Made by a program: the position numbers and the translations under genes. A DNA stretch of 53,681 bases from a virus. Lineage: Duplodnaviria; Caudoviricetes. The DNA lies in the IMG/VR virus record IMGVR_UViG_3300025645_000098, positions 1 to 53,681 of that record. The stretch is one strand, 5' to 3'. Each line of letters starts with the position of its first letter. Position 1 is the first letter of the stretch. The notes under the pieces are model-generated. The model was not told where the DNA came from and searched no databases. It was given only the letters and a program-made list of their open reading frames with translations. Positions 14,147 to 27,189 of the stretch are shown in pieces.

Positions 14147-14878
14147 ATGGCTGGACGTATATCATATAGAAACCCTTATGGTAATCATAAGATGTTCTCA
14201 ATTAAAGATAAATTCTTAGCACATGTAGATACTAAAAGAATGATTTGGTATTTAGATAGGGAATTGGCTGTAATGATAAATGAAAAAGATTTTAAACTCA
14301 CCTTTGTATCTAAAGGTGATAAAGATAGGGGTGAATATTATAAGTTAGAATTATTGAATTGTTGTGTAGTATGTGGTTCAGATGATGAATTAACAAAACA
14401 CCACGTAGTACCTTATCAATATAGAAAATACTTCCCAGATGAGTATAAATCTAAAAGTTCATTCGATGTTCTATGTCTTTGTAAGACATGTCATAATGAA
14501 TATGAATTAAAGGCTGATGAATTAAAAGATGAATTGCTAATTAAATATAACCTTTTTTCACATACTAAAGATATTCAAAGGGTTAAACGTTCAATACACG
14601 CACTTGAAAATTATAGTGAATGGATTGAATCTGAAAGAAAACAACGTATGGTATCAGAAATTGAAGATTTCTTTGACGATTCTTTAGATAATATATTAGA
14701 TGGTGATGAAACTAATTTCGAATTTGAATCAGCCACATCACTCCTAATGAAGAATATTAAAGATATTAAAGTGTTTATTATTATGTGGCGTAAACATTTT
14801 GTAAAACATACTAATGCTAAATTCTTACCACAAGAATGGTTAGATGAAATGGGAGAAGTAATAAAGTTTATTGGATAA
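14147..14878 (+). CDS. HNH nuclease resembling the C-terminal domain of EXD2
   Basis: CVVCG...TKHHVVPYQYRKYFP...SFDVLCLCKTCHNEYE, plus WYL and WRKHF motifs. Confidence 0.75.
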   Translation: MAGRISYRNPYGNHKMFSIKDKFLAHVDTKRMIWYLDRELAVMINEKDFKLTFVSKGDKDRGEYYKLELLNCCVVCGSDDELTKHHVVPYQYRKYFPDEYKSKSSFDVLCLCKTCHNEYELKADELKDELLIKYNLFSHTKDIQRVKRSIHALENYSEWIESERKQRMVSEIEDFFDDSLDNILDGDETNFEFESATSLLMKNIKDIKVFIIMWRKHFVKHTNAKFLPQEWLDEMGEVIKFIG

Positions 14879-15662: not shown

Positions 15663-16184
15663 ATGAGTGAATTAGTAAATAATTTTCCTGAATTCGTATT
15701 CATGGGTAGCGTATTAATGTTTTACGTTTTAACAATAGCATTTATAGTGACACTATTCATTTCAGAAGTTACTGAAAATGGATGGTTAGCATCAATATCA
15801 TTTGTGATATTTATCGTGGCAACTAAATTTTGGGGTAATTTTGAAATTACTGATTATATAACCCTTAAATTAATCGGGTTATATCTATTGATTGGTTTAG
15901 GCCATTCATTAATCAGGACCTATTTCTATGGTAGAAAAAGAGGTGTTCTTAAGAAAAAGTTATTAACACATCACAGTGAAGGTACCACCCCGATACAAAA
16001 TTTTAATGATTCAACTAAAGGTAAGTTAAAAGGTAACGTTTTTCGTTGGTGGTTTTTATTTCCAGTATCATTATTAACTTGGGTATTCTCAGATTTAATG
16101 AGAGATGTATGGAACTTTTTATATCAACAATTTAGAAAAGCATTTGAATATGTTTTAAATTTAGGTTTAAAATCTATAAAATAA
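15663..16184 (+). CDS. Membrane protein
   Basis: Four hydrophobic segments. Confidence 0.7.
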   Translation: MSELVNNFPEFVFMGSVLMFYVLTIAFIVTLFISEVTENGWLASISFVIFIVATKFWGNFEITDYITLKLIGLYLLIGLGHSLIRTYFYGRKRGVLKKKLLTHHSEGTTPIQNFNDSTKGKLKGNVFRWWFLFPVSLLTWVFSDLMRDVWNFLYQQFRKAFEYVLNLGLKSIK

Positions 16185-16190
16185 AATGGA

Positions 16191-16369
16191 TTAAACTCTT
16201 TGATTGAAAATAAACAATGGTATATCCTAATAGTAATTAAATTAGGGCTACAATTGATTCACCATAAACCATTATCAGGTGGTTGTGTATAAGTGGTCTT
16301 GCATGGTGATTTAATTCATGGGCAGAAGTACCTACCATCCCATAGCTGAATTGGGCAAAGAGTTTTTAA
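16191..16369 (+). ncRNA. Candidate structured RNA
   Basis: ORF-free; closed by AAACTCTTTG/CAAAGAGTTT helix. Confidence 0.35.
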
Positions 16370-16374
16370 TATAT

Positions 16375-16501
16375 GGGGTCAAAGACAAGACGGTAGAGTA
16401 GAGTGTACATTATAATCTACTTAGTCTAGAGTTGGTCTAGTTGAGTATAACAGAGTGGTGCAACACAAAGTTATATAGAGGTTCGAATCCTCTTGACCCC
16501 A
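16375..16501 (+). ncRNA. tRNA-like element with enlarged core
   Basis: Perfect GGGGTCA/TGACCCC-A acceptor and AGAGG-TTCGAAT-CCTCT T arm around ~95 non-canonical nt. Confidence 0.55.
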
Positions 16502-16509
16502 CTTTAATA

Positions 16510-17635
16510 TACTGGGTGTACTAGTAGATGTTGTGATACATTAAGAAGGTTAAACATTGAAACCTTTGTGAGTAAGAGAAGACACTAAATTGGAAAGATA
16601 CCTATGTCTTCGTGAGGTATATGCTTATTCACATAAAGATACTAATCCTGAATTGACAGGATGTTATTGTTAATTATAAGGCTTAGAGTCCTAACGGATA
16701 TAATGAAATCTCTAAGCACAATAACGGAGTAATCCTAGTAGCATGTTAGGATGAGTGGTGCTCTCTATGACAATTTGAGCATAGGAGCACACACTTATCT
16801 AATTCAGGTTTAAGTTTATCAAATGAAGTTTTATAGTTTGAATAATCTTTATCCTTTTGAGTAGGGTCTATATGATGAAACTCAAGTGCTGAATTACATT
16901 TATTGTAACCACAATTAGAGCATTTACCACCAAGATAATCAATAGCTTGTTGTTTAATAACTCTTCTTCTTTCAGCATTAGAATCAAGAATACAAGACTT
17001 ACAAAAGCCACTAACCTTAATTTCTTGTCCTTTTATAGGGTAGAAATCAAGCTTTCTGTCTTTAATTGTATTGCATTTAGGACATTTCTTATGGGTAATA
17101 CTATTATTTATATTCATGGGGTAAATATACGACATTTATCTCTTAAAAACAAGTGGGCTAAACATTGATACCACTATAATCACTGATATTTCATAGTAAT
17201 ATGATAATGTGTTGTTCCCTTGAGAAAGGAAAAAGCGTTTAAATATAGAGAATAAAACGTCGTTCTCTACAACACAAATGAGTTCTCAGCAAAGTAGTTA
17301 TCGCATCGGGCTAGTACTGGAATCTAACTACAAGACCCTACTCTTATTAGTGGATTAGTAATCTTAAATGAATAGGATTCAGCTAATAAGAAAGAGGGTG
17401 CTAATAATGATTAACAAACATAGGTCAGGTAATAGCGTGGCAAAATAGTAGGATATTAAGAAGTCAAGTAAATAGTGGTAATCCTACCTCGCTAATAAAA
17501 TTCGTATTAATAATAAAACCTAATATCCTCGAAGTAGAGTGTTGACTAAACGAATATAGATACCAATCATTACCAAAAGGAATCATAAATCACCTGGTAT
17601 ACCAGCCGAAGAGAGAAACTTCAGATTCCTTTTAT
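16510..17635 (+). ncRNA. Candidate large structured RNA (ROOL/GOLLD-like), interrupted by an HNH gene
   Basis: About 240 and 480 nt of ORF-free, hairpin-rich sequence on either side of an antisense HNH ORF; family call tentative. Confidence 0.45.
16746..17117 (-). CDS. HNH endonuclease
   Basis: CPKC, CKSC, CSNC, ALEFHHIDP, ELDKCVLLCSNCHREHH; TATATTTAC motif just before the ATG. Confidence 0.88.
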   Translation of the reverse strand: MNINNSITHKKCPKCNTIKDRKLDFYPIKGQEIKVSGFCKSCILDSNAERRRVIKQQAIDYLGGKCSNCGYNKCNSALEFHHIDPTQKDKDYSNYKTSFDKLKPELDKCVLLCSNCHREHHSS

Positions 17636-17736
17636 TGTAATACTTTTCTTATTTAATTCTGTAATTTATCGATAAAGTGTATAAAAAGCTGGACAACTTG
17701 TAAAAATGTATTATATTTATCTATAAATTTATAGAT

Positions 17737-19401
17737 ATGAAAAAAGTTATTATTACGATGTTTTTGTTGTGCACATCATTAATCTTCGCACAACTACCAG
17801 ATGGTTACGTTTCTGAACAATTAATTGACACTTATAACAGTCCAATGGACGTTGAATTTATTACTGGTAGACCTGATATGATGGTTATAGCTGAAAGAGC
17901 TGGTAAAATTTGGATAGCTGATTTAGTAAATGATAATTGGGTCAAGAGAGATAACCCAGTAATAGATATTACAAATCAAGTAACTACTTATTTTGAAAGA
18001 GGTATACAAAGTATCATTGTTGACAGACATTTTATTTATGTTTATTATACCGTTGAAGAGACTTATTTACTCCCAGGGTTAAATGAAGATGTAAATGATG
18101 ATTCAGCAACAATAAATAGGGTGTCTAGATGGGAAATATCATGGCCACAAAATATTGAGTTTGGTGAAGAAATATTAATTGGTAAAACACCATCTGATGG
18201 GATTCCATCTACAGCTGGAAATCATCAAGGTGGTGGTATGGCTTGGGGTGAGAATAACATGTTATTCGTTTCAACTGGCGATGGTGGAAGTGGTATTTTT
18301 AATCAACAAGCCATTGATAGAGGAATTATGAGAGCTGAATTAAATGTAAATGGGGGTAGTAAAAGTCAAATTATTAATTGTCTTAATGGAAAATTATTAA
18401 GAATTAATCCATGGAATGGTGATGGTGCTAACGGAAATCCATTTTATGATTCTAATAATAGACGAACACCAGAATCTAGGGTTTATGCTTTAGGGTTTAG
18501 AAATCCTTTTGATATAGTAGGTAAACCATATATGGGGGTTAATAATCAACCAACAACAATATACGTTGCTGATGTGGGTGAGGGTAATAAAGAAGAAGTT
18601 ACCCTAATAGATAAAGCTGGTTTAAATGCTGGGTGGGGGTTACGTGAAGGATTTAGTACTAGGACTTTATCTGGTAATAATCCAGATGAAGGCGTACCTT
18701 ATTCTGACCTTATGAGTGAAGCAACTTCATTTGTTGAAGTGTCTGACGATACACAAAGACGATTTACACATCATCCACCTGAATTAGATTATGGGCATAG
18801 TGGAAACCCATTAACTAGATTACCTAGATTTACTGATGGGGTATTAGACCCAATAATTGATGTAAACGCCATTGAAGGAAATTCAATTACTGGTGGTGCT
18901 TATATATCTGGTGATGGTTTTGGTGAAAATTATAACGGTGCTTATATATTTAGTGATTATTCTAGAGGTTGGTTGAATATTGGAATACCTTATGTAGACC
19001 AAAGTAATGATAGATATTTTGATTATATAGAAGAATTTGCACCAATTAATTCTTATCCAGTTACAATAGATATTACTCAAAACCCAATTGATGGGTCAAT
19101 ATATATAGTAACATTATTTGGAGATATTCATAGAATTTCTTTAAGTGAAACATTATCAATTCAAACTCCATCATTAAATGATGAAATTAAAATTATTTAT
19201 GATAATAATACTAATCTTAATTCTATTGTTGGTATTAATAATATGGCAACACTAAAAATATATGATTCATTAGGTAGATTTATATCTGAAGATACAATCT
19301 ATGATTACCATATTATTGATTATAAATTACAGAGTGGTATTTATATTGCTCATATTATAAATGATAGTAATATATTGGTAAAAAAATTCATTATTAAATA
19401 A
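17737..19401 (+). CDS. PQQ-dependent sugar (glucose/sorbosone) dehydrogenase-like protein with T9SS C-terminal domain
   Basis: Signal peptide; HQGGGMAWG, STGDGG, GKLLRINP, YALGFRNP, ADVG; C-terminus KIYDSLGR...SGIYI...KKFIIK. Confidence 0.88.
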   Translation: MKKVIITMFLLCTSLIFAQLPDGYVSEQLIDTYNSPMDVEFITGRPDMMVIAERAGKIWIADLVNDNWVKRDNPVIDITNQVTTYFERGIQSIIVDRHFIYVYYTVEETYLLPGLNEDVNDDSATINRVSRWEISWPQNIEFGEEILIGKTPSDGIPSTAGNHQGGGMAWGENNMLFVSTGDGGSGIFNQQAIDRGIMRAELNVNGGSKSQIINCLNGKLLRINPWNGDGANGNPFYDSNNRRTPESRVYALGFRNPFDIVGKPYMGVNNQPTTIYVADVGEGNKEEVTLIDKAGLNAGWGLREGFSTRTLSGNNPDEGVPYSDLMSEATSFVEVSDDTQRRFTHHPPELDYGHSGNPLTRLPRFTDGVLDPIIDVNAIEGNSITGGAYISGDGFGENYNGAYIFSDYSRGWLNIGIPYVDQSNDRYFDYIEEFAPINSYPVTIDITQNPIDGSIYIVTLFGDIHRISLSETLSIQTPSLNDEIKIIYDNNTNLNSIVGINNMATLKIYDSLGRFISEDTIYDYHIIDYKLQSGIYIAHIINDSNILVKKFIIK

Positions 19402-19657: not shown

Positions 19658-20472
19658 GGGGTGCTTATGCTCCTGTCTCTTCGGAGACTAAGATAAATCC
19701 AGCAATGGTATTTAAAGTGATGTCTATACAAGGCATTGCGTTATTGAGACTTCGGTTTTAGTAATCTATGTAAGCATATTGACTACGGGAAAGCATCAAG
19801 GGTCGACTGACTTAGATGACAAACCCACTTCCTAGCTTCGGGAAGTTGAGATAGAAATATCAATAGATGGTTAATAGATTTTGGTTGAAACGTGTAAAAA
19901 GCGGATAGGCTGATTTCATCATAATTTGTTATGGAATGTTCAATGTGACACTTCTTTAAGCTCTACTGGAAACAGTACCTTAAAAAGTTAACTGAGGTAA
20001 ATCTAAGTAATGAAGAAATGACGTGACTGTAAAAAGTTACAACGGGGTGTTGTAAGCTACACTGGTCCAAAGCCAGCACGCTTGTCAATCGCAAGACGCA
20101 TCCTGTAAGAGAGAGCATCGCTATTCTATGGTTGGTTAATAGCCAACGTTTTTAATGTAATAAAAATCAGAAAAGTAAAAGTTCTTGCGACCATGGATAC
20201 AAAATTAAGTTATGCTGCTGTAATATGTAGCTAGTGAAAGCTCACAAGGCTGAAACTAAAACGAAAAATAGGTATCGTTAGTAAGAGGGTAGTGCCTTTT
20301 CATCCTCACAAGGGAGCTAGGTAGTGAAATTGGTTTATATCAGTTCATGGTAAAAGAGTTCGCAGTCACTATAAGACTGTCTTAATAATGTCTACCAGAA
20401 CGAAAGTCGAGGTGTGTGCGCTAGGGAAACCAGATGTAAAATGATATTAATAACGCCCAACACTCAAGCGTT
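19658..20472 (+). ncRNA. Large structured RNA, ~815 nt, GOLLD-like candidate
   Basis: ORF-free and less AT-rich; many UUCG/GNRA-capped hairpins (GTCTC-TTCG-GAGAC, GATA-GAAA-TATC, TACTG-GAAA-CAGTA); next to tRNA-like elements. Confidence 0.65.
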
Positions 20473-20476
20473 AAAC

Positions 20477-20544
20477 GGGGATATCGACTAACTTGAAGTC
20501 GCTGCTTTTGAAGTAGAAATGTAGTATCGAATCTACTATCCCCA
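20477..20544 (+). ncRNA. Short tRNA-like element
   Basis: GGGGATA/TATCCCC-A acceptor, D-like arm, CTGCT/AGTAG stem with 5-nt loop, altered T arm. Confidence 0.5.
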
Positions 20545-20648
20545 CTAAAATTTCATTATAAAATACCTATAACGTATGGTATTAAAGAATGTAACTGAAT
20601 ACAAGATTCGTAATCTACTTTTATATTCAAAATAATGATTTTTAAAAA

Positions 20649-20728
20649 GGGGATGTAGTCGGACCTGTTGTGAAGGCAGTGATTCCGTAATCGTACTGAA
20701 AATGCAACTGTGAGTGTTGCCATTTCCA
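20649..20728 (+). ncRNA. Novel tRNA-like RNA, copy 1
   Basis: GGGGATG/CATTTCC-A acceptor; GCAAC-TGTGAGT-GTTGC arm; covaries with copies 2 and 3. Confidence 0.75.
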
Positions 20729-20853
20729 CTAGAGGTTCTCATTTATCCAAAAATGTGTGGTGGAGCTACAAATGCCCAATGACCCAACCTTGAGTTGGTT
20801 GTTACGACAAGGAGCGTAATGTAAAACACTAGAGATTAGTCACTCTGGCGAAA

Positions 20854-20930
20854 GGGGATGTAGCCAGACCAGCATTGAGCTGGTATCTGTAATCATGCTG
20901 AAAATGCTACTGTAAGTGTAGCCATCTCCA
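20854..20930 (+). ncRNA. Novel tRNA-like RNA, copy 2
   Basis: GGGGATG/CATCTCC-A acceptor; GCTAC-TGTAAGT-GTAGC arm. Confidence 0.75.
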
Positions 20931-21023
20931 CTAAAAATATTCATAGTTTAGTTACTATGTTAATTACCTAACCCAGTGAAATGCTGGTTTATCAAATAAA
21001 TGCAGAGGGTAAATATTTTAATC

Positions 21024-21102
21024 GGGGGTATAACCAGACCAGTCATGCGACTGTGATTCTGTAACCAAGTTGAAAATGTTATTGTAAATGTAACTACCCC
21101 CA
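21024..21102 (+). ncRNA. Novel tRNA-like RNA, copy 3
   Basis: GGGGGTA/TACCCCC-A acceptor; GTTAT-TGTAAAT-GTAAC arm. Confidence 0.75.
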
Positions 21103-21194
21103 CTAAAAATATTGAGTTTAATTTTGCGGTTCAGTTCTCAATTTAAAAAAAACTAGGTGGGGTGTTAAAACCCCATCGTAAACGCCCAAAAAAA

Positions 21195-21383
21195 ATGAAT
21201 GATTATCAATTAGTAAATGAAAATATTTCAATAACAAGAAATTGGAATTTAAACGATTGGAGAGATTTCAGAAGTAGATATGAGTATTGGGAAACCAAAG
21301 ATAGGCTCATGAAACAAAAACAATATTTTGCCTTTAAGAAGTTCAAAAACAACGCTTTAAAGGCTTATATTAGAAGAAAATAA
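21195..21383 (+). CDS. Small hypothetical protein
   Basis: ORF MNDYQLVNE... with A-rich Bacteroidetes-type initiation region. Confidence 0.5.
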   Translation: MNDYQLVNENISITRNWNLNDWRDFRSRYEYWETKDRLMKQKQYFAFKKFKNNALKAYIRRK

Positions 21384-21474
21384 AAAAAAGATTAAAAAAA
21401 CATTGTATTTTAAGATACTTTTATGTATCTTTGAACTATATATTAATAACAGCGAAAGCTAACAATTAGAAATT

Positions 21475-21576
21475 ATGACAATTACAACGACATATACGAA
21501 ACAGTATCAACCGACAGGCGGGAAGCCTCAAGGTAAACTGGGTATGCGTTGTAACGAAGACCAAGAATTATGGTAA
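21475..21576 (+). CDS. Putative attenuator leader peptide (33 aa)
   Basis: MTITTTYTKQYQPTGGKPQGKLGMRCNEDQELW, between promoter TATCTTTG (21426) and a terminator. Confidence 0.65.
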   Translation: MTITTTYTKQYQPTGGKPQGKLGMRCNEDQELW

Positions 21577-21603
21577 TATAATTCTAGTCGATAGACAATA
21601 TAC

Positions 21604-21642
21604 AAAAACCCAGTTGATAAAACAATTTCAACTGGGTTTTTT
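21604..21642 (+). terminator. Intrinsic terminator (attenuator) before the tRNA array
   Basis: AAAAACCCAGTTGA/TCAACTGGGTTTTTT hairpin with T tract. Confidence 0.85.
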
Positions 21643-21674
21643 GCGTTTAATAGTTTCCAAATCTATAAAATTGG

Positions 21675-21690
21675 GTTCTTTGAAATATTG
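21675..21690 (+). promoter_or_regulatory. boxA-like antitermination element
   Basis: GTTCTTTGAAATATTG immediately before the first tRNA; resembles rrn boxA. Confidence 0.55.
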
Positions 21691-21699
21691 TATTTTTAT

Positions 21700-21771
21700 C
21701 GGGAATGTGTTGTAAAGGTTGCATACCGCTTTTGGAAAGCGGAGGTCAGAGTTCGAATCTCTCATTCCCGA
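21700..21771 (+). tRNA. tRNA-Pro(TGG)
   Basis: CGGGAAT/ATTCCCG acceptor; CCGCT-TTTGGAA-AGCGG. Confidence 0.88.
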
Positions 21772-21887
21772 AATAATCGAGTTAATCTACTTCCACGTAG
21801 TGATTATTGGAAACAGGTAATGCTGGCTAAAAGATTAACAAAAAAATTCCATTATCATAATTTAGATATTGAAGAAATGAAAACTAA

Positions 21888-21970
21888 CGGGAAGTGACCA
21901 AGGTAAAATGAAAAAAGGCTACGGGGCCTTGGATGCCTCAGTATGGTCGGTTCGATTCCGACCTTCCCGA
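21888..21970 (+). tRNA. tRNA-Pro(TGG), aberrant D arm
   Basis: CGGGAAG/CTTCCCG acceptor; GGGGC-CTTGGAT-GCCTC; expanded A-rich D region. Confidence 0.65.
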
Positions 21971-22030
21971 CGACCAGACTGTTATTAATTCATAGAAGGA
22001 GAAACGTATCCTAGCATAGAATTAAATTAT

Positions 22031-22103
22031 TGGGATGTGGTGTAATGGTAACACAGCTGGTTTTGAGCCAGCACGAGTGAGGGTTCGAATCCGTCCATCC
22101 CAT
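22031..22103 (+). tRNA. tRNA-Gln(TTG)
   Basis: TGGGATG/CATCCCA acceptor; GCTGG-TTTTGAG-CCAGC. Confidence 0.85.
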
Positions 22104-22171
22104 CAATAGTGTTCATTTTAAATGAGTGTTCAGTGACAATGAACAGAGCAAAATAATGAACATTCAAAAAT

Positions 22172-22253
22172 GGGGTACCGCCAACGTTGGAGAGTTGGAC
22201 CAGTCTGTAAAACTGGTGCGTAAGCTGAGTAGGTTCGAATCCTATGTGCCCCA
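22172..22253 (+). tRNA. tRNA-Tyr(GTA)
   Basis: GGGGTAC/GTGCCCC acceptor; CCAGT-CTGTAAA-ACTGG; variable arm. Confidence 0.9.
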
Positions 22254-22392
22254 CAAAAAGAGGATATTATTTGGTGAGTAACTTATTGAACCAGTTGTAC
22301 TGATATAAGTGAAGTGACAAGTAAGAAGATTGGATATGCCAATTGTACAACAACGCCTGACTTTAGCGAGTTTGGTAATCTTCCTCTTTAAA

Positions 22393-22501
22393 TGGCTGTA
22401 GTGAATAGGTCACCTTTCAATCATATTAATTTAGTTGAATGAGAATGGATATGTGAGCGTTACATCATATCGTCGGTTGGGTTCGAATCCCTTCGCAGCC
22501 G
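22393..22501 (+). ncRNA. Degenerate tRNA-like element with long core
   Basis: GGCTG/CAGCC closing helix and GGG-TTCGAAT-CCC T arm. Confidence 0.4.
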
Positions 22502-22664
22502 CTAAAATTTGAATTATGAAAATGATAGAATTAAAACATTCAGGTGAGATATCACCAGAAGCAAAAGAAAAATTAAACAAGAGGATTTTCAACCGTAATA
22601 AACGTTTGAAAGAAATGAAAGAAGCGTATTTGAATGGTGAATATGATGAAATGTTTAATAAAAT

Positions 22665-22737
22665 ACCCTCGTAGCAAACTGGTCGTAGGCAACTCCCTTT
22701 TAAGGAGTGGGGCTGGGTTCGACTCCCAGCGGGGGTA
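22665..22737 (+). tRNA. tRNA-Lys(TTT)
   Basis: ACCCTCG/CGGGGGT acceptor; ACTCC-CTTTTAA-GGAGT. Confidence 0.9.
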
Positions 22738-22792
22738 CTGGAAGTAGATGTCTTTATTAATTTAGCATCTAGGAAGAATAGAAATTAAATTT

Positions 22793-22866
22793 GCTCTGTA
22801 CGCATAAAAGGTGGTGCACTAGATTTGTAACCTAGAATAGAATCGGTTCGATACCGATACAGAGCT
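22793..22866 (+). tRNA. tRNA-Thr(TGT)
   Basis: GCTCTGT/ACAGAGC acceptor; CTAGA-TTTGTAA-CCTAG. Confidence 0.85.
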
Positions 22867-22931
22867 CAGAATGTGGAAAAACATCGCTCCCGTAATGCCA
22901 CGGCTCATGCATGAGTAACGGGAGACAAATT

Positions 22932-23021
22932 GGGTATGTATGCAAATTGGCTGAAGCGAGCAGACTGTAAATCTGTAGGTGTTGAAAGACCCCATTGGGA
23001 GTTCGAATCTCTCCATGCCCA
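22932..23021 (+). tRNA. tRNA-Tyr(GTA)
   Basis: GGGTATG/CATGCCC acceptor; GCAGA-CTGTAAA-TCTGT; long variable arm. Confidence 0.88.
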
Positions 23022-23195
23022 CTATACATGTAGAAAGCAATTATTAATGTCTAGCTTCAGCTTCGTGGAGAGGTCAGGCTACAATCTGGTGATAAGATTA
23101 ATTACCTTAAGGCAGATACGTTAGGAATTGTGAAATATTGGCCTATGGTGTAACTGGTTAACATATCGGCCTTTGACTCCGATGTGGTTATTTAT

Positions 23196-23269
23196 TGGGG
23201 TATCGTCTAGCGGTCTAAGACGCTTGGTTTTGAACCAAGAAAGCGTGAGTTCGAATCTCTCTACCCTAA
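23196..23269 (+). tRNA. tRNA-Gln(TTG), nested inside the split tRNA
   Basis: TGGGGTA/TACCCTA acceptor; CTTGG-TTTTGAA-CCAAG. Confidence 0.85.
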
Positions 23270-23325
23270 CTTTGAATTTTTATTGAACTTCAAAGAGTTT
23301 TTAGATATTTATAATAAAAGATATC

Positions 23326-23733
23326 ATGAAAAAAATTTGTACTAAATGTAAAGTAGAAAAAAACACTACTGAGTTCAATAAAAAAAATAGAAATAAAGAT
23401 GGTTTATCTTCACAATGTCGTGAATGTAATAAATTAAATTTAAAAGCTCATTATAATAATAATAAAAAGTATTATAAAGAAAGGAATATTAATAAACGTA
23501 ATGAGTTAAAAGAATGGTTTTTAGAATATAAAAAGACATTGAAGTGTAGTGTTTGTTCAGAATCTAGATATTGGGTTTTAGACTTTCATCATAGAGACCC
23601 TAATAAAAAAGAGGGGGCGATAAGTTATCTATTAGGTAGATATGGTAAAAATAAAGCCTTAAAAGAAATTGAGAAATGTGATGTAGTATGCGCTAATTGT
23701 CATAGAGATATACACCATAAAATGGAAAATTAG
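23326..23733 (+). CDS. HNH endonuclease
   Basis: CTKC, CREC, CSVC, VLDFHHRDP, EIEKCDVVCANCHRDIH. Confidence 0.9.
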   Translation: MKKICTKCKVEKNTTEFNKKNRNKDGLSSQCRECNKLNLKAHYNNNKKYYKERNINKRNELKEWFLEYKKTLKCSVCSESRYWVLDFHHRDPNKKEGAISYLLGRYGKNKALKEIEKCDVVCANCHRDIHHKMEN

Positions 23734-23803
23734 TGTGGGTTCGAGTCCCACTGGGCCATCAAAGAGGGAGGTGACACCAGACATCTTTAATAAATTGGTA
23801 TAA

Positions 23804-23892
23804 CCGAGAGTATCCGTAGCTAGGCGAACGGTCCAGCCTTTTAAGCTGATGAGTTAATGACTCCACCGTGGGTTCGATTCCCACCTCTCGGA
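23804..23892 (+). tRNA. tRNA with TTT (Lys) anticodon and long variable arm
   Basis: CCGAGAG/CTCTCGG-A acceptor; CAGC-CTTTTAA-GCTG; variable arm GAGTT-AAT-GACTC. Confidence 0.7.
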
Positions 23893-23901
23893 CAAATAAA
23901 A

Positions 23902-23986
23902 TCTCGTATAGGTGTAATGGAACATACTAGTTAAGCACGGTAGCTATAGGGTTACAGGAGGGGGGTTCGAATCCTTCATAGGAGAC
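23902..23986 (+). ncRNA. Degenerate tRNA-like element
   Basis: D-like arm GTGTAATGGAACAT and GGTTCGAATCC T arm; no canonical anticodon arm. Confidence 0.4.
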
Positions 23987-23990
23987 AAAT

Positions 23991-24076
23991 GCGGTGATAG
24001 TGTCAATTTGGAAAGTTCTAGAATAACACGCAGCCTTTCCACGGCTGAGATATAGGTTCGAGTCCTATTCACCGCT
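23991..24076 (+). tRNA. tRNA-Gly(TCC), enlarged D loop
   Basis: GCGGTGA/TCACCGC acceptor; CAGCC-TTTCCAC-GGCTG. Confidence 0.8.
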
Positions 24077-24091
24077 CTAAAATTTAATAAA

Positions 24092-24289
24092 ATGGATGAT
24101 TCAATGCAAATGGAATTATATCAATTCCTAATGAGAAACTTATCTATATCAGTTGATATGGGTACGGAATATGAAACTTATGGTGAGTATGCTACATGCA
24201 ACGTTACTTTAAGTTTAAGAAACCCAGAAACTGGTGAAATGGAAGTGATTGGAAACGCTTACGATTCAGTTTCAATAAATAGAGATTAA
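24092..24289 (+). CDS. Small hypothetical protein
   Basis: ORF between tRNA genes. Confidence 0.6.
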   Translation: MDDSMQMELYQFLMRNLSISVDMGTEYETYGEYATCNVTLSLRNPETGEMEVIGNAYDSVSINRD

Positions 24290-24308
24290 TTACCGTTAAT
24301 TACCAGAT

Positions 24309-24382
24309 GCACCTGTAGTTTAATAGGTTTAAAATTCTTCTGTGGTATGGAAGAGACCCCAGTTCGATTCTGGGTGGGTGCT
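24309..24382 (+). tRNA. tRNA-Thr(GGT)
   Basis: GCACCTG/TGGGTGC acceptor; CTTCT-GTGGTAT-GGAAG. Confidence 0.7.
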
Positions 24383-24458
24383 CAATGAGGAAAAAACAAA
24401 CCCAGCTTGAAGTACATAAGATACATTGGTTGAGAGCTGACTCAACCTTTCCTCAAAC

Positions 24459-24532
24459 GCAGATGACGCATAAGTGGTGGTGCGCCAGCCTTCCAAGCTG
24501 GAATAGACTCGGTTCGATTCCGAGTATCTGCA
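24459..24532 (+). tRNA. tRNA-Gly(TCC)
   Basis: GCAGATG/TATCTGC acceptor; CCAGC-CTTCCAA-GCTGG. Confidence 0.9.
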
Positions 24533-24543
24533 CTTTAGAATAA

Positions 24544-24626
24544 GCGGGTATCGTATAACGGTAGCGAAAGCGATATTATATTGGTCTTCCAAATCAAAGA
24601 TGAGGGTTCGATTCCCTCTACCCGCC
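24544..24626 (+). tRNA. tRNA-Gly(TCC), hairpin inserted in D loop
   Basis: GCGGGTA/TACCCGC acceptor; TTGGT-CTTCCAA-ATCAA; GC-GAAA-GC inside the D loop. Confidence 0.8.
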
Positions 24627-24665
24627 AATTTTAAAAATAGAATATTAATTTAAAAATACAATATT

Positions 24666-24824
24666 ATGTGCTGTGATGCAAGTGATTATTCCGAAAATGA
24701 AATAGATGGAGAATGTCTCGATTGTGGTGGTCCAACAGTAGATGGAGATGCTTATGATTGTTGTGGTTATTCACCATTAGATTGTGAAACATGTGGTTCC
24801 AGACCATGTGACCTAAGTTGTTAA
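24666..24824 (+). CDS. Small Cys-rich protein (52 aa, 10 Cys)
   Basis: MCCDASDYSENEIDGECLDCGGPTVDGDAYDCCGYSPLDCETCGSRPCDLSC; below ORF-track cutoff. Confidence 0.7.
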   Translation: MCCDASDYSENEIDGECLDCGGPTVDGDAYDCCGYSPLDCETCGSRPCDLSC

Positions 24825-24830
24825 AAAATT

Positions 24831-24864
24831 AACCCTATCATTTATTTGGTGGGGTTATTTTTTT
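24831..24864 (+). repeat. 34-nt direct repeat (terminator/promoter unit), copy 1
   Basis: AACCCTATCATTTATTTGGTGGGGTTATTTTTTT, identical at 28503-28536. Confidence 0.85.
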
Positions 24865-24897
24865 TTAGTATCTTTGTATAAATATTAAATATAATAT

Positions 24898-25776
24898 ATG
24901 AAAAATTTTGCAATCTCAAACGAGAGAATTACAAAAAGAGAAACACGTTCAATGAATTCATATTTTAATGAATTGAATAAAATACCTTTATTAACATCAG
25001 ACGAAGAAGTTGAATTGGCAACTCTTAGTAAAAATGGTGATGAAAATGCTAGACAGAAATTAGTTAAACATAATTTAAGATTTGTTGTTAGTATTGCTAA
25101 AAAATATACTACCCCAAATATTAAGATTGAAGATTTGATTAATGAAGGAAATATCGGTCTTATCATTGCCTCTCAAAAATTTGACCCAACAAGAGGATTC
25201 AAATTTATTTCTTATGCTGTATGGTGGATTAGGCAACAAATGTCGGCTTATATTTCTCAAACTTCAAAAATTATTAGGACTCCTGATAATAAAAATAATG
25301 AATTGTATGCAATAAAAAAGTGTGTTAGTTTACTAGAACAAGAATTAGAACGTAAGCCATCTTATGATGAAATAATAGAAGTATTAGAAAAATCTTATTC
25401 TGAAGCCAGTATTAATTTCTTTCTCAATAGAGATAGAATTTTTACTAAATCATTAGATGAACAATTCACTGAAAATTCAGATTCGGGTTCGTTAATTGAT
25501 TCAATTAGGGATTCAAATAGTAATAACCCAAGCAATACTTTAGATTCAACTCATTCAATATATAATATAAATACATTATTAAATAAATTAAATGAACGGG
25601 AATCGTTGGTTCTTCAATTATTATTTGGTTTTAATGGTTATGAACCTAAAACTCCGAAGGAAATTGCTATTGAATTAGGTGTTACATCAACTTTAATTTT
25701 AGTGATAAAACGTAAAGCACTTAAAAAATTAAAATATAAACTACAAGGTAATGCCAGTTGGATGATTGAAAATTAA
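24898..25776 (+). CDS. RNA polymerase sigma-70 factor (Bacteroidetes RpoD-like, no region 1.1)
   Basis: LVKHNLRFVVSIAKKY, DLINEGNIGL, FDPTRGFKFISYAVWWIRQ, region-4 HTH. Confidence 0.93.
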   Translation: MKNFAISNERITKRETRSMNSYFNELNKIPLLTSDEEVELATLSKNGDENARQKLVKHNLRFVVSIAKKYTTPNIKIEDLINEGNIGLIIASQKFDPTRGFKFISYAVWWIRQQMSAYISQTSKIIRTPDNKNNELYAIKKCVSLLEQELERKPSYDEIIEVLEKSYSEASINFFLNRDRIFTKSLDEQFTENSDSGSLIDSIRDSNSNNPSNTLDSTHSIYNINTLLNKLNERESLVLQLLFGFNGYEPKTPKEIAIELGVTSTLILVIKRKALKKLKYKLQGNASWMIEN

Positions 25777-25785
25777 ACACTAAAT

Positions 25786-25917
25786 ATGAATATAAAGATT
25801 TCAAAAGGTGAGGGTTCTGGTTATGGTTCTGGTAATGGTAATGGTTCTGGTTTTGGTTTTGGTTCTTGTGGTTATGGTGATGGTAATGGTTGTGGTGATG
25901 GTTATGGTAGAGGTTAA
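25786..25917 (+). CDS. Gly-X repeat mini-protein 1 (43 aa)
   Basis: MNIKISKG leader followed by (GX)n. Confidence 0.75.
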   Translation: MNIKISKGEGSGYGSGNGNGSGFGFGSCGYGDGNGCGDGYGRG

Positions 25918-25929
25918 AAAATAAAATAT

Positions 25930-26184
25930 ATGAATATAAAGATTTCAAAAGGTGATGGTGATGGTTATGGTAATGGTTATGGTAATGGTGATGGTGAGGG
26001 TAATGGTAATGGTTTTGGTGTAGGTGGTCATTCTGGTAATGGTTCTGGTTCTGGTAATGGTAATGGTGCTGGTGAGGGTTATGGTGTTGGTTATGGTGAG
26101 GGTTCTGGTTCTGGTTCTGGTTCTGGTAATGGTAGAGGTTCTGGTTATGGTGATGGTTGTGGTGATGGTTATGGTAGAGGTTAA
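25930..26184 (+). CDS. Gly-X repeat mini-protein 2 (84 aa)
   Basis: MNIKISKG leader followed by (GX)n. Confidence 0.8.
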   Translation: MNIKISKGDGDGYGNGYGNGDGEGNGNGFGVGGHSGNGSGSGNGNGAGEGYGVGYGEGSGSGSGSGNGRGSGYGDGCGDGYGRG

Positions 26185-26196
26185 AAAATAAAATAT

Positions 26197-26493
26197 ATGA
26201 ATATAAAGATTTCAAAAGGTGATGGTAATGGTTATGGTAATGGTGATGGTGAGGGTTATGGTTTTGGTGTAGGTGGTCATTCTGGTAATGGTTCTGGTTC
26301 TGGTAATGGTAATGGTGCTGGTGAGGGTTATGGTTGGGGTGATGGTTATGGTGATGGTTCTGGTTCTGGTACTGGTTCTGGTTCTGCTTCTGGTTCTGGT
26401 TCTGGTAGAGGTTCTGGTAATGGTAGAGGTTATGGTTCTGGTAATGGTTATGGTAGAGGTGCTGGTTATGGTAGAGGTTATGGTAATAGTTAA
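26197..26493 (+). CDS. Gly-X repeat mini-protein 3 (98 aa)
   Basis: MNIKISKG leader followed by (GX)n. Confidence 0.8.
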   Translation: MNIKISKGDGNGYGNGDGEGYGFGVGGHSGNGSGSGNGNGAGEGYGWGDGYGDGSGSGTGSGSASGSGSGRGSGNGRGYGSGNGYGRGAGYGRGYGNS

Positions 26494-26505
26494 AAAATAA
26501 AACAT

Positions 26506-26793
26506 ATGAATATAAAGATTTCAAAGGGTAATGGTGATGGTTCTGGTGATGGTTCTGGTAATGGTAATGGTATAGGTTCTTTTTGGGGTTATGGTTATGG
26601 TGATGGTTCTGGTGATGGTGAGGGTTCTGGTACTGCTGGCGGTTATGGTTATGGTTGTGGTTCTGGTGCTGGTGAGGGTTATGGTGTTGGTTCTGGTGAT
26701 GGTTCTGGTTTTGGTAATGGTTCTGGTCGTTATGGTTCTGGTGATGGTTATGGTTCTGGTTGTGGTGATGGTTATGGTAATGGTATAGGTTAA
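26506..26793 (+). CDS. Gly-X repeat mini-protein 4 (95 aa)
   Basis: MNIKISKG leader followed by (GX)n. Confidence 0.8.
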   Translation: MNIKISKGNGDGSGDGSGNGNGIGSFWGYGYGDGSGDGEGSGTAGGYGYGCGSGAGEGYGVGSGDGSGFGNGSGRYGSGDGYGSGCGDGYGNGIG

Positions 26794-26805
26794 AAAATGA
26801 AACAT

Positions 26806-26892
26806 ATGAATATAAAGATTTCAAAGGGTAATGGTGATGGTTATGGTTCTGGTTCTGGTTATGGTTATGGTAGAGGTCATGGTATAGGTTAA
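26806..26892 (+). CDS. Gly-X repeat mini-protein 5 (28 aa)
   Basis: MNIKISKG leader followed by (GX)n. Confidence 0.7.
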   Translation: MNIKISKGNGDGYGSGSGYGYGRGHGIG

Positions 26893-26904
26893 AAAATGAA
26901 ACAT

Positions 26905-27105
26905 ATGAATATAAAGATTTCAAGAGGTTATGGTTCTGGTGCTGGTAATGGTTATGGTGGTTGGGGTGGTGGTAGTTCTGGTTCTGGTACTGCTTGTGGT
27001 TCTGGTTATGGTTCTGGCGAGGGTGATGGTTATGGTGATGGTTATGGTAGAGGTTCTGGTAGAGGTGTTGGTAGAGGTTCTGGTTATGGTTCTGGTTCTG
27101 GTTAA
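26905..27105 (+). CDS. Gly-X repeat mini-protein 6 (66 aa)
   Basis: MNIKISRG leader followed by (GX)n. Confidence 0.75.
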   Translation: MNIKISRGYGSGAGNGYGGWGGGSSGSGTACGSGYGSGEGDGYGDGYGRGSGRGVGRGSGYGSGSG

Positions 27106-27189
27106 AAAATAAAATAAAAAAAAGCATAAAAACTTGTTAGTTTAAAAAATAAGTTATATATTTGCATTAATAATTAATAATAAAAAAAA

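Follow-up and report, generated by a model that had tools for sequence, protein, structure and literature searches.

A phage cassette of an HNH endonuclease gene and a tRNA gene lies within a tRNA gene of the same anticodon

Introduction

Homing endonuclease genes normally escape selection by residing in self-splicing introns or inteins, or between genes, and the free-standing ones tend to adjoin a resistant allele of the gene that they target. Group I introns with homing endonuclease open reading frames (ORFs) occur in bacterial and phage transfer RNA (tRNA) genes, nrdA of Aeromonas phage Aeh1 is split by mobE, and the archaeal splicing endonuclease acts on a bulge-helix-bulge to join the split and permuted tRNAs of Nanoarchaeum and other archaea, which have complementary leaders. 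In this study we analyze a phage tRNA-Gln(UUG) gene that is interrupted by a complete second tRNA-Gln(UUG) gene together with a gene for an HNH endonuclease of the family PHROG 2255. The locus lies in the viral record IMGVR_UViG_3300025645_000098, and the window, i.e. the whole stretch of DNA that was analyzed, is this entire IMG/VR record of 53,681 bases (~30% G+C).

A free-standing nuclease of a phage tRNA gene cluster has been described in phage T4: according to the accessible part of that report, the GIY-YIG homing endonuclease SegB has a 27-bp site that contains the T-arm motif GGTTCRANTCC, and it drives the inheritance of the tRNA region (PMC2330249). HNH genes adjoin tRNA arrays in cyanobacteria and mycobacteria as well, as stated in the available portions of two further studies (PMC8421152, PMC5966550). 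In full-text searches of the main text of openly available articles, we found no description of a tRNA gene that is interrupted by an HNH gene together with a second tRNA of identical anticodon.

CheckV estimates the record to be ~15% complete, and hence the window is a fragment of a very large phage. Its sequence was found in several freshwater metagenome runs. Two stretches of the window are rich in tRNA genes (1-1000 and 20400-24650); ARAGORN reports 11 tRNAs in total and Rfam 10 at gathering score.

Results

A tRNA-Gln gene in two parts

The segments 23139-23187 and 23735-23759, both on the plus strand, are two parts of a single tRNA-Gln(UUG) gene. The 5' part (nucleotides (nt) 1-48 of the tRNA), as read from the sequence, contains the acceptor strand TGGCCTA, the D arm GTGT/ACAT, the anticodon arm with the loop CTTTGAC (anticodon TTG) and the 5-nt variable loop TGTGG; its anticodon stem TCGGC/TCCGA has a single mismatch, C31.U39. 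The 3' part (nt 49-73) consists of the T arm GTGGG-TTCGAGT-CCCAC (23735-23751), the acceptor strand TGGGCCA (23752-23758) and the discriminator T (23759). The two acceptor strands pair at 7/7 positions, one pair being G.U, and across both halves they form the end U1-A72, G2-C71, G3-C70, which we take to be the typical pattern of bacterial tRNA-Gln. When the parts are joined exactly at 23187|23735, the resulting 49 + 25 = 74 nt give a canonical tRNA-Gln(ttg) cloverleaf in ARAGORN. The break thus separates nt 48 from nt 49, where the variable loop meets the T stem, and not a single base has been lost or duplicated.

The insert between the two parts measures 547 nt. It begins with a spacer of 8 nt (23188-23195), followed by the nested complete tRNA-Gln(UUG) on the plus strand at 23196-23270, which was called by ARAGORN and is matched by Rfam RF00005 at 23196-23269. 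With 61.4 bits it is the top-scoring Rfam tRNA match in the window, and in a pairwise comparison it is 59% identical to the split copy. An AT-rich spacer or leader of 55 nt (23271-23325) with a 7-bp hairpin (CTTTGAA..TTCAAAG, about 23270-23295) precedes the HNH gene, which occupies 23326-23733 on the plus strand and encodes 135 amino acids (aa) followed by a TAG stop codon. A sigma-70-like match at 23300-23327 is weak (9/12), and shuffled sequence gives as much. The final base of the insert, 23734, separates the TAG from the T stem, and altogether 64 nt (8 + 55 + 1) lie outside the tRNA and the ORF. The original prediction for this DNA, which had seen tRNA-Gln(TTG) halves ~550 bp apart with pairing TGGCCTA/TGGGCCA strands, a complete and divergent tRNA-Gln(TTG) between them, an HNH stop codon abutting the orphan T arm and a TGTGG at both junctions, is borne out in all of these points.

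The two copies of TGTGG are found at 23183-23187 and 23734-23738. The first is the variable loop itself and the second is composed of the one insert base and the first four bases of the T stem; hence they represent a microhomology of 4-5 nt and no target-site duplication. The other split-tRNA cases described below have no junction repeat of this type, so that TGTGG is no general feature of such junctions. Apart from TGTGG there is no repeat at the insert, and its HNH gene is the sole plus-strand ORF of at least 60 aa; an integrase-type element, for which we looked for a recombinase and a duplicated 3' tRNA segment, was not found. Rfam shows no intron family in the window at gathering score, and none in 20300-24900 at E-values up to 10. 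A group I or other intron was rejected on the lack of an Rfam ribozyme match and on the position of the break at 48|49, away from the anticodon loop, which agrees with the earlier claim of an insertion without a splicing element.

Could the layout be an assembly chimera, or could two unrelated fragments pair by chance? The sequence stems from a metagenome assembly, tRNA arrays are repetitive, and ARAGORN tolerates many joins. However, contigs from the run of another sample (X5) span 22384-23528 and 23574-24860 with zero differences and bridge both junctions, and therefore the layout is no assembly artefact; moreover, five runs contain 95-100% of the sampled words of the phage sequence. As to chance, an acceptor pairing of 7/7 is expected at ~0.001 per pair of halves, and the tRNA-Gln-type end reaches across both halves. 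We therefore regard a chimera or chance pairing as exceedingly improbable.

The HNH protein

The 135-aa product matches phrog_2255 in the PHROGs collection with an E-value of 5.4e-32 (112 bits, residues 1-133). In an alignment of 40 sequences, i.e. the window protein, its window paralogue described below and 38 relatives from fetched loci, 12 columns are invariant, and the window protein has every one of them (C5, C8, C31, C34, C74, C77, F87, H89, E114, K117, C118 and H126), as well as C122, N124 and C125, which are at least 90% conserved. The N-terminal CxxC..CxxC zinc ribbon is thus invariant and is followed by the HNH core, in which the catalytic His, Asn and His and two CxxC pairs of zinc ligands are present. 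In an AF2 model with a predicted local distance difference test score (pLDDT) of 96.5, a strand at 85-89 is followed by a strand at 118-122 and a helix at 123-134. The best Foldseek E-value for this model is a weak 0.26 (Hpy99I), and a sequence search of solved structures gave no meaningful match. On its profile and motif, not on its fold, we accept the window protein as an intact HNH enzyme.

The split design recurs in the same HNH family

For a wider comparison we used 156 loci of the family, comprising 75 viral loci, 80 metagenome loci (the best 80 of 253 relatives) and the window; they fall into 115 clusters at 95% nucleotide identity. L-numbers in the following are labels of fetched loci, and W denotes the window locus. 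A strict scan of all 156 loci combined orphan 5' halves up to 450 nt upstream of the HNH gene with orphan T arms up to 450 nt downstream, with T8, A14, GG in the D loop, a D stem, T33 and R37 as the criteria for a 5' half. Among the 70 candidate pairs, eight have 7/7 acceptor pairing compared to 0.05 on average, and 2 at most, in 1000 shuffles, which again argues against chance; at least 6/7 pairs are seen in ten candidates against a shuffle mean of 0.53 (maximum 4). Looser scans were dropped as noise, having yielded 24, 57 and 15 hits against about 7, 57 and 8 in their controls. After duplicates were merged (L012 = L013 with 99.98% identity; L025 = L152 = L154 with 99.3% identity or the same contig), the ten rows correspond to four independent loci, W, L012, L025 and L029, and a fifth case is contributed by a second site in L012.

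In L012 a tRNA-Cys(GCA) is broken past the anticodon loop. Behind its 5' half come a nested tRNA-Cys(GCA) and then the HNH gene, with an orphan T arm located 3 nt past the stop codon. The acceptor pairing is 6/7 and nt 39-48 are gone. In L029 a tRNA-Pro(TGG) is split: its 5' half is followed by the HNH gene and this by a nested tRNA-Pro(TGG), and after another 21 nt there is an orphan T arm with acceptor strand and CCA. The acceptor strands co-vary between the halves and not with the nested tRNA, and the anticodon stem of the split copy is degraded. At the second site in L012 the HNH gene is longer, its product having an additional N-terminal region, and it is accompanied by a nested tRNA-Val(TAC) and a small ORF. 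On one side this group is flanked by a 5' half and on the other by an orphan T arm; the two pair at 7/7 acceptor positions (GGGAGTT/AACTCCC), and the acceptor strand and D arm of the 5' half resemble the nested tRNA-Val. All six HNH proteins of the split-tRNA cases, including that of phage Wofford described in the next section, have phrog_2255 as their best family.

Filled and empty alleles in relatives

Sister alleles with and without the insert are available in two groups of phages. The annotation of Streptomyces phage Wofford lists a tRNA-Met, an HNH gene and a tRNA-Met, whereas phage Karimac, whose flanks are 99.7% identical, has two adjacent tRNA-Met genes and no HNH gene. By alignment and exact strings, the intact second tRNA-Met of Karimac (L163, 676-747) equals a 5' part (1125-1164) plus a 3' part (1869-1898) in Wofford (L160). 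These halves lie ~704 nt apart, separated by the HNH gene 171, the different tRNA-Met(cat) gene 172 and ORF 173, and three bases at the border of anticodon stem and variable region have been lost. The HNH gene is present in 4 of the 25 listed rows (Wofford twice, Riptide and Anedea), and the other 21 show tRNA-Met next to tRNA-Met without it. Riptide (L164) has the same 5' part as Wofford together with a shorter 3' remnant from which the 5' strand of the T stem is gone. The public annotations of Wofford (L160, NC_048722.1) and Riptide give two tRNA-Met genes and the HNH gene, and the halves of the broken third tRNA-Met are unlisted. We also noted an unusual T loop, TGCGACT, in the nested tRNA-Met of Wofford. 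In Jada, Francesca, Myrna and KIL4, where the HNH gene adjoins tRNAs, recognisable halves were not found.

In crAss001 the HNH gene lies between tRNA-Gly(GCC) and tRNA-Gly(TCC). Compared to PhiCrAssBcn4 the flanks are identical, and a single indel, [tRNA-Gly(GCC) + HNH], distinguishes the spacer before tRNA-Gly(TCC); the site is filled in seven crAss001-like records and empty in the 21 listed PhiCrAssBcn records, which match in two pieces. Hence tRNA and HNH gene are mobile together, and their order is that of the window cassette. Judged from these sequence comparisons, the HNH-plus-tRNA cassette is a mobile unit that can sit in the gene of a tRNA with an identical anticodon, and this gene is thereby inactivated.

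Broken and nested tRNA agree in their anticodon in 4/4 readable cases: Gln in W, Cys in L012, Pro in L029 and Met in Wofford. In the usual arrangement of the family the tRNAs flanking the HNH gene share an anticodon in 1/25 clusters, and the baseline of adjacent tRNA pairs is 9/212. The anticodon match is therefore specific to the split design and not a property of the whole family.

These data also bear on the idea that the layout is a mere scar of rearrangement. HNH breaks in a dense tRNA array might have been mended by illegitimate or microhomology-mediated repair, with the nested tRNA being a pre-existing neighbour, and neither specificity for tRNA-Gln nor selection for rescue would be required. 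Further orphan T arms or odd tRNA-like pieces at 267, 565, 21946, about 22470 and 23961 would fit such a history, as would the 4-5-nt microhomology TGTGG at both junctions and a population variant that diverges within an orphan T arm at 22496. Isoacceptor tRNAs often are neighbours, too, since 38/212 adjacent pairs in the same loci share their amino acid, and for T4 the accessible part of one report connects SegB breaks with tandem amplification of tRNA genes and segB through microhomology junctions (PMC13096335). However, two exact deletions from a tandem array would be needed in place of one insertion, both halves are complete to the last base, the anticodons match in 4/4 cases compared to 4% of adjacent tRNAs, and Wofford differs from Karimac by one clean insertion in an intact tRNA gene on a 99.7% identical background. 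On balance we consider such a scar unlikely.

A second possibility is that the split tRNA still works. The halves could be co-transcribed with the array and set free by the excision of the nested tRNA through RNase P and RNase Z; they would then pair through the 7-bp acceptor stem and contacts of D loop and T loop to give a nicked but chargeable tRNA-Gln, or they might be sealed by a phage RNA ligase. All 74 nt are retained and the break lies in the variable region, outside the helices; in vitro, a tRNA can be reassembled from its fragments after a cut in the variable or the anticodon loop. If true, split tRNAs, known from archaea and algal nuclei, would have a first example elsewhere, and one made by a homing endonuclease cassette. 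Several observations speak against it: the lack of an intron family even in the lenient scan of 20300-24900, the 64 nt of insert outside tRNA and ORF, the C31.U39 mismatch already present in the 5' half, and two other tRNA-Gln(UUG) genes encoded by the phage. In other cases, moreover, essential bases have been lost (nt 39-48 in L012, 3 nt in Wofford, the 5' strand of the T stem in Riptide), or the anticodon stem has degraded (L029). We thus hold a working split tRNA to be highly improbable.

The usual home of the HNH family

By tblastn, members of the family were detected in 130 phage records. A tRNA lies within 1.5 kb of the HNH gene in 115 of the 156 loci. In 54 of the 156 the HNH stop codon falls inside the next tRNA on the same strand, and in 11 more this tRNA starts at most 20 nt away; hence the usual home of the family is the spacer directly 5' of a tRNA gene. 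The most frequent downstream tRNA is tRNA-Pro(tgg) (12/48). In L029 the HNH ORF ends at a TAG made by tRNA positions 8-10, so that a nuclease gene takes its stop codon from a tRNA gene.

Other HNH copies in the window

A decayed second copy of the HNH gene is found near the start of the window. Downstream of a tRNA-Ala(UGC) at 14-87 on the plus strand (ARAGORN; 52.5 bits in Rfam), a 38-aa remnant at 135-251, also on the plus strand, retains the C-terminal motif only and has an internal duplication of 14 nt. It matches phrog_2255 with an E-value of 4e-10, and by alignment 179-240 is 84% identical in nucleotides to 23661-23722 of the main HNH gene. It is followed on the same strand by a second orphan T arm, GTGGG-TTTGAAT-CCCAT (267-283), with the acceptor strand CAGCAAT and the discriminator A, ending at 291. 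The order at 14-291, tRNA, HNH and orphan T arm, is that of the main cassette. A 5' partner for the T arm at 267-291 is absent from the window, the lone match lying inside a coding region at 14358; it would lie upstream of the contig start. The similarity of the two copies runs from the 3' end of the HNH gene through TGTGGGTTYGARTCCCA and stops at the acceptor strand. Therefore either the start of the T arm is part of the mobile unit, or both targets had the same T arm.

A third HNH gene of 129 aa, also of phrog_2255, lies on the minus strand at 16746-17135 in a stretch of 1.5 kb that is poor in ORFs. Rfam detects no family in 16000-17800, only a fragment match of 15.6 bits. In the same stretch this gene adjoins a tRNA-like element of 125 nt on the plus strand (16379-16503), with an acceptor stem GGGGTCA/TGACCCC, a D-arm-like CTAG-AGTTGGT-CTAG, a T arm AGAGG-TTCGAAT-CCTCT and an additional hairpin of ~45 nt behind the 5' acceptor strand. 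The original prediction had pointed to related HNH genes in or beside RNA genes at 135 and 16746 and to a family that targets stable-RNA loci. The relationship of the copy at 135 and the residence of the family in tRNA arrays are supported by the data above; the copy at 16746 does belong to the same PHROG, whereas its position in or beside an RNA gene is true in a loose sense, the adjoining element being tRNA-like and on the opposite strand.

Other structured elements of the window

Three related elements of ~80 nt (20649-20729, 20854-20930 and 21024-21102; mean column identity 81%) share a co-varying terminal stem of 7 bp (GGGGATG/CATCTCC versus GGGGGTA/TACCCCC) followed by ACTA(A)AAA. They have tRNA-like ends and lack a TTCGA loop, and they look like an undescribed family of small structured RNAs heading the tRNA array. 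Just past tRNA-Pro, the segment 21878-21975 has a perfect acceptor stem CGGGAAG/CTTCCCG, near that of tRNA-Pro, and a canonical T arm around a core unlike that of a tRNA; neither ARAGORN nor Rfam calls it. Between the two lies a weak match to a ribozyme of the hepatitis delta virus type (21772-21838; 25 bits with a cut-off of 44).

Further tRNA-like pieces are a 67-nt tRNA match without an anticodon arm at 523-589 (37.5 bits), an element at 23906-23985 whose acceptor strands pair at 6/7 positions around a long irregular middle, and, at about 22440-22500, an orphan T arm, within which a contig of run X6 diverges at 22496. ARAGORN reports a tRNA-Lys(ttt) of 90 nt at 23804-23893 and a tRNA-Tyr of 83 nt at 22172-22254, both with long extra arms; the nearest Rfam model for them is tRNA-Sec, below its cut-off of 47 bits (30.8 and 36.1 bits, respectively). 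Outside the array, the region 25721-27127 holds successive small plus-strand ORFs for repeat peptides rich in Gly, Ser, Tyr and Asn, all starting with MNIKISKG. They are overlapped by an antisense ORF of 468 aa rich in His, Asn and Gln, and the GC skew is 0.57 compared to about 0.2 elsewhere.

Discussion

In this study we describe a tRNA-Gln(UUG) gene in two parts with a second tRNA-Gln(UUG) gene and an HNH gene between them. We propose, with a probability of roughly 0.7, that a free-standing cassette, made up of a homing-type HNH gene and a passenger tRNA, landed in the gene of a tRNA whose anticodon is identical to that of the passenger, and that it replaces this gene. The best explanation of the family as a whole is that in phage tRNA arrays the homing-type HNH gene of PHROG 2255 and a passenger tRNA together form a small travelling cassette, and at this locus that the resident split tRNA-Gln(UUG) is presumably dead, with the nested tRNA likely to supply the same anticodon. 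By analogy to SegB, the HNH enzyme might recognise the uninterrupted tRNA gene across the insertion point, from anticodon stem to T stem and probably including T-arm DNA. The insertion would split this recognition site and thereby render the carrier immune. Intact alleles of co-infecting relatives would be cut and then repaired from the carrier, so that the cassette is copied in by homing, and the two tRNA halves with their flanks would serve as homology arms. The nested tRNA may differ enough at the site to escape cutting.

The anticodon match could have come about by two routes. Either the HNH gene had a resistant allele of its target as its neighbour, and this allele was taken along when the insertion occurred by end joining, or insertions persist only if the lost tRNA is restored. 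As to the founding event, homology-driven repair as the origin of the layout was rejected: by reasoning only, with a donor of the usual arrangement it leaves one orphan half at most. We therefore postulate that the founding insertion needs an end-joining type of capture of the HNH gene with its neighbouring tRNA, which the microhomology of 4-5 nt in the window and the loss of 3 nt in Wofford would fit.

This postulated step itself counts against our proposal, as do the following points. ViennaRNA does not give a cloverleaf as the minimum-energy fold of the joined halves (-26.3 versus -21.6 kcal/mol), and ARAGORN is lenient, since most of a grid of alternative joins was also called tRNA-Gln; what carries the case is therefore the acceptor pairing, together with the fact that the arms add up exactly. 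An insert-free allele of the window locus was not found: exact and gapped patterns had zero matches in viral, metagenome and genome contigs, a weak search in that exact matches were required and records near the window may be missing from these collections, and across four runs no contig joins over 23188-23734, where contigs tend to drop rare variants. L078, found through a sigma-like gene (43% aa identity), is the sole syntenic relative that was found; it has the order Pro-Gln-Tyr-Thr-Gly without the 2-kb block that contains the cassette and is too distant to tell insertion from deletion. Its tRNA-Gln is the fetched tRNA closest to the split 5' part, with 71% identity. The nearest relative of the window HNH among the fetched loci is 50% identical, and hence there is no sign of recent movement of the cassette. 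With 1/25 compared to 9/212 shared anticodons, the passenger tRNA is not generally a rescue copy; in L025 the HNH gene alone splits a tRNA in the variable region, with no nested tRNA. At the second copy of the window the same-anticodon rule probably fails, and the broken gene at 267-291 is probably not a tRNA-Ala; CAGCAAT would give U3-A70, and we take G3.U70 to be the mark of tRNA-Ala. For the protein, Pfam shows zero families at E-values up to 0.1. This miss is a limit of one model, as the motif itself is present; the paralogue at 16746 reaches 20.7 bits with PF01844, below the gathering cut-off of 21.4. Likewise, VIA-align gives weak structural similarities, with a Z score of 3.7 to the Gme HNH nicking enzyme (residues 61-135) and 5.3 to Hpy99I (N-terminal residues 1-39 only).

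The original prediction had gone further and read the locus as a selfish element that destroys its target and compensates with a cleavage-resistant isoacceptor. An HNH gene with a same-anticodon tRNA does interrupt a tRNA gene, and this recurs with the same HNH family, whereas the split tRNA-Gln is a putative cleavage target, the nested tRNA a putatively resistant copy, and the rescue role is not general (1/25; L025). Likewise, the insert-free allele that it suggested looking for exists for sister cassettes (Wofford and Karimac; crAss001 and PhiCrAssBcn4) and was not found for the window locus. If our proposal holds, a third route would be open to homing endonuclease genes, in which the element breaks the gene in which it lands and brings a spare copy along. 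This would explain the duplicate isoacceptors, the unannotated tRNA fragments and the quick turnover of phage tRNA arrays, and it touches on present studies of the part that phage tRNAs play in counter-defence. A cultured pair with the same design is available in Wofford, where the site is filled, and Karimac, where it is empty.

How does the locus compare to known systems? As in archaeal split tRNAs, the halves are encoded apart and have matching acceptor strands. Unlike there, the hosts are bacterial, and reading of the sequence, with no dedicated search, revealed nothing complementary beyond the acceptor stem. Group I introns in tRNA genes resemble our locus in that a nuclease-bearing insert sits in a tRNA gene without loss of target bases. 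They differ in that here no ribozyme is matched, the site is 48|49 and not the anticodon loop, and the insert is nearly filled by a tRNA and an ORF.

A further likeness is that to 'fractured genes' with split inteins, where, as far as the available part of that report goes, a free-standing homing endonuclease gene leaves its host gene in two pieces (PMC2677866). In fractured genes, and likewise in nrdA, the protein pieces still work, by trans-splicing or assembly, whereas here a second full copy apparently restores the function and the halves decay in other loci. SegB comes near in being encoded by a free-standing gene in a phage tRNA array and in having its target in tRNA genes, including T-arm DNA, as described in the accessible part of the report (PMC2330249). 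According to the portions available of two reports, neighbouring tRNA genes are inherited along with segB and the array can be reshaped (PMC2330249, PMC13096335). SegB is a GIY-YIG and not an HNH enzyme, and in those same portions segB lies between intact tRNA genes, with neither a split nor a nested same-anticodon tRNA within a broken target being described (PMC2330249, PMC13096335).

The layout also resembles the synthetic drives HomeR and ClvR, in which, according to the accessible text of both reports, a nuclease is coupled to a copy of the gene that it disrupts, recoded so as to be immune to cleavage (PMC7968924, PMC6442612). The HomeR element is inserted in its own target gene, as the cassette here putatively is (PMC7968924, PMC6442612). 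Those drives, as far as these texts go, employ engineered Cas9 in insects against essential protein genes, whereas here a natural HNH gene is combined with a tRNA in a phage, and the immunity of the nested tRNA and a role of the tRNA in fitness are putative (PMC7968924, PMC6442612). As such the cassette might be a natural counterpart of engineered home-and-rescue drives.

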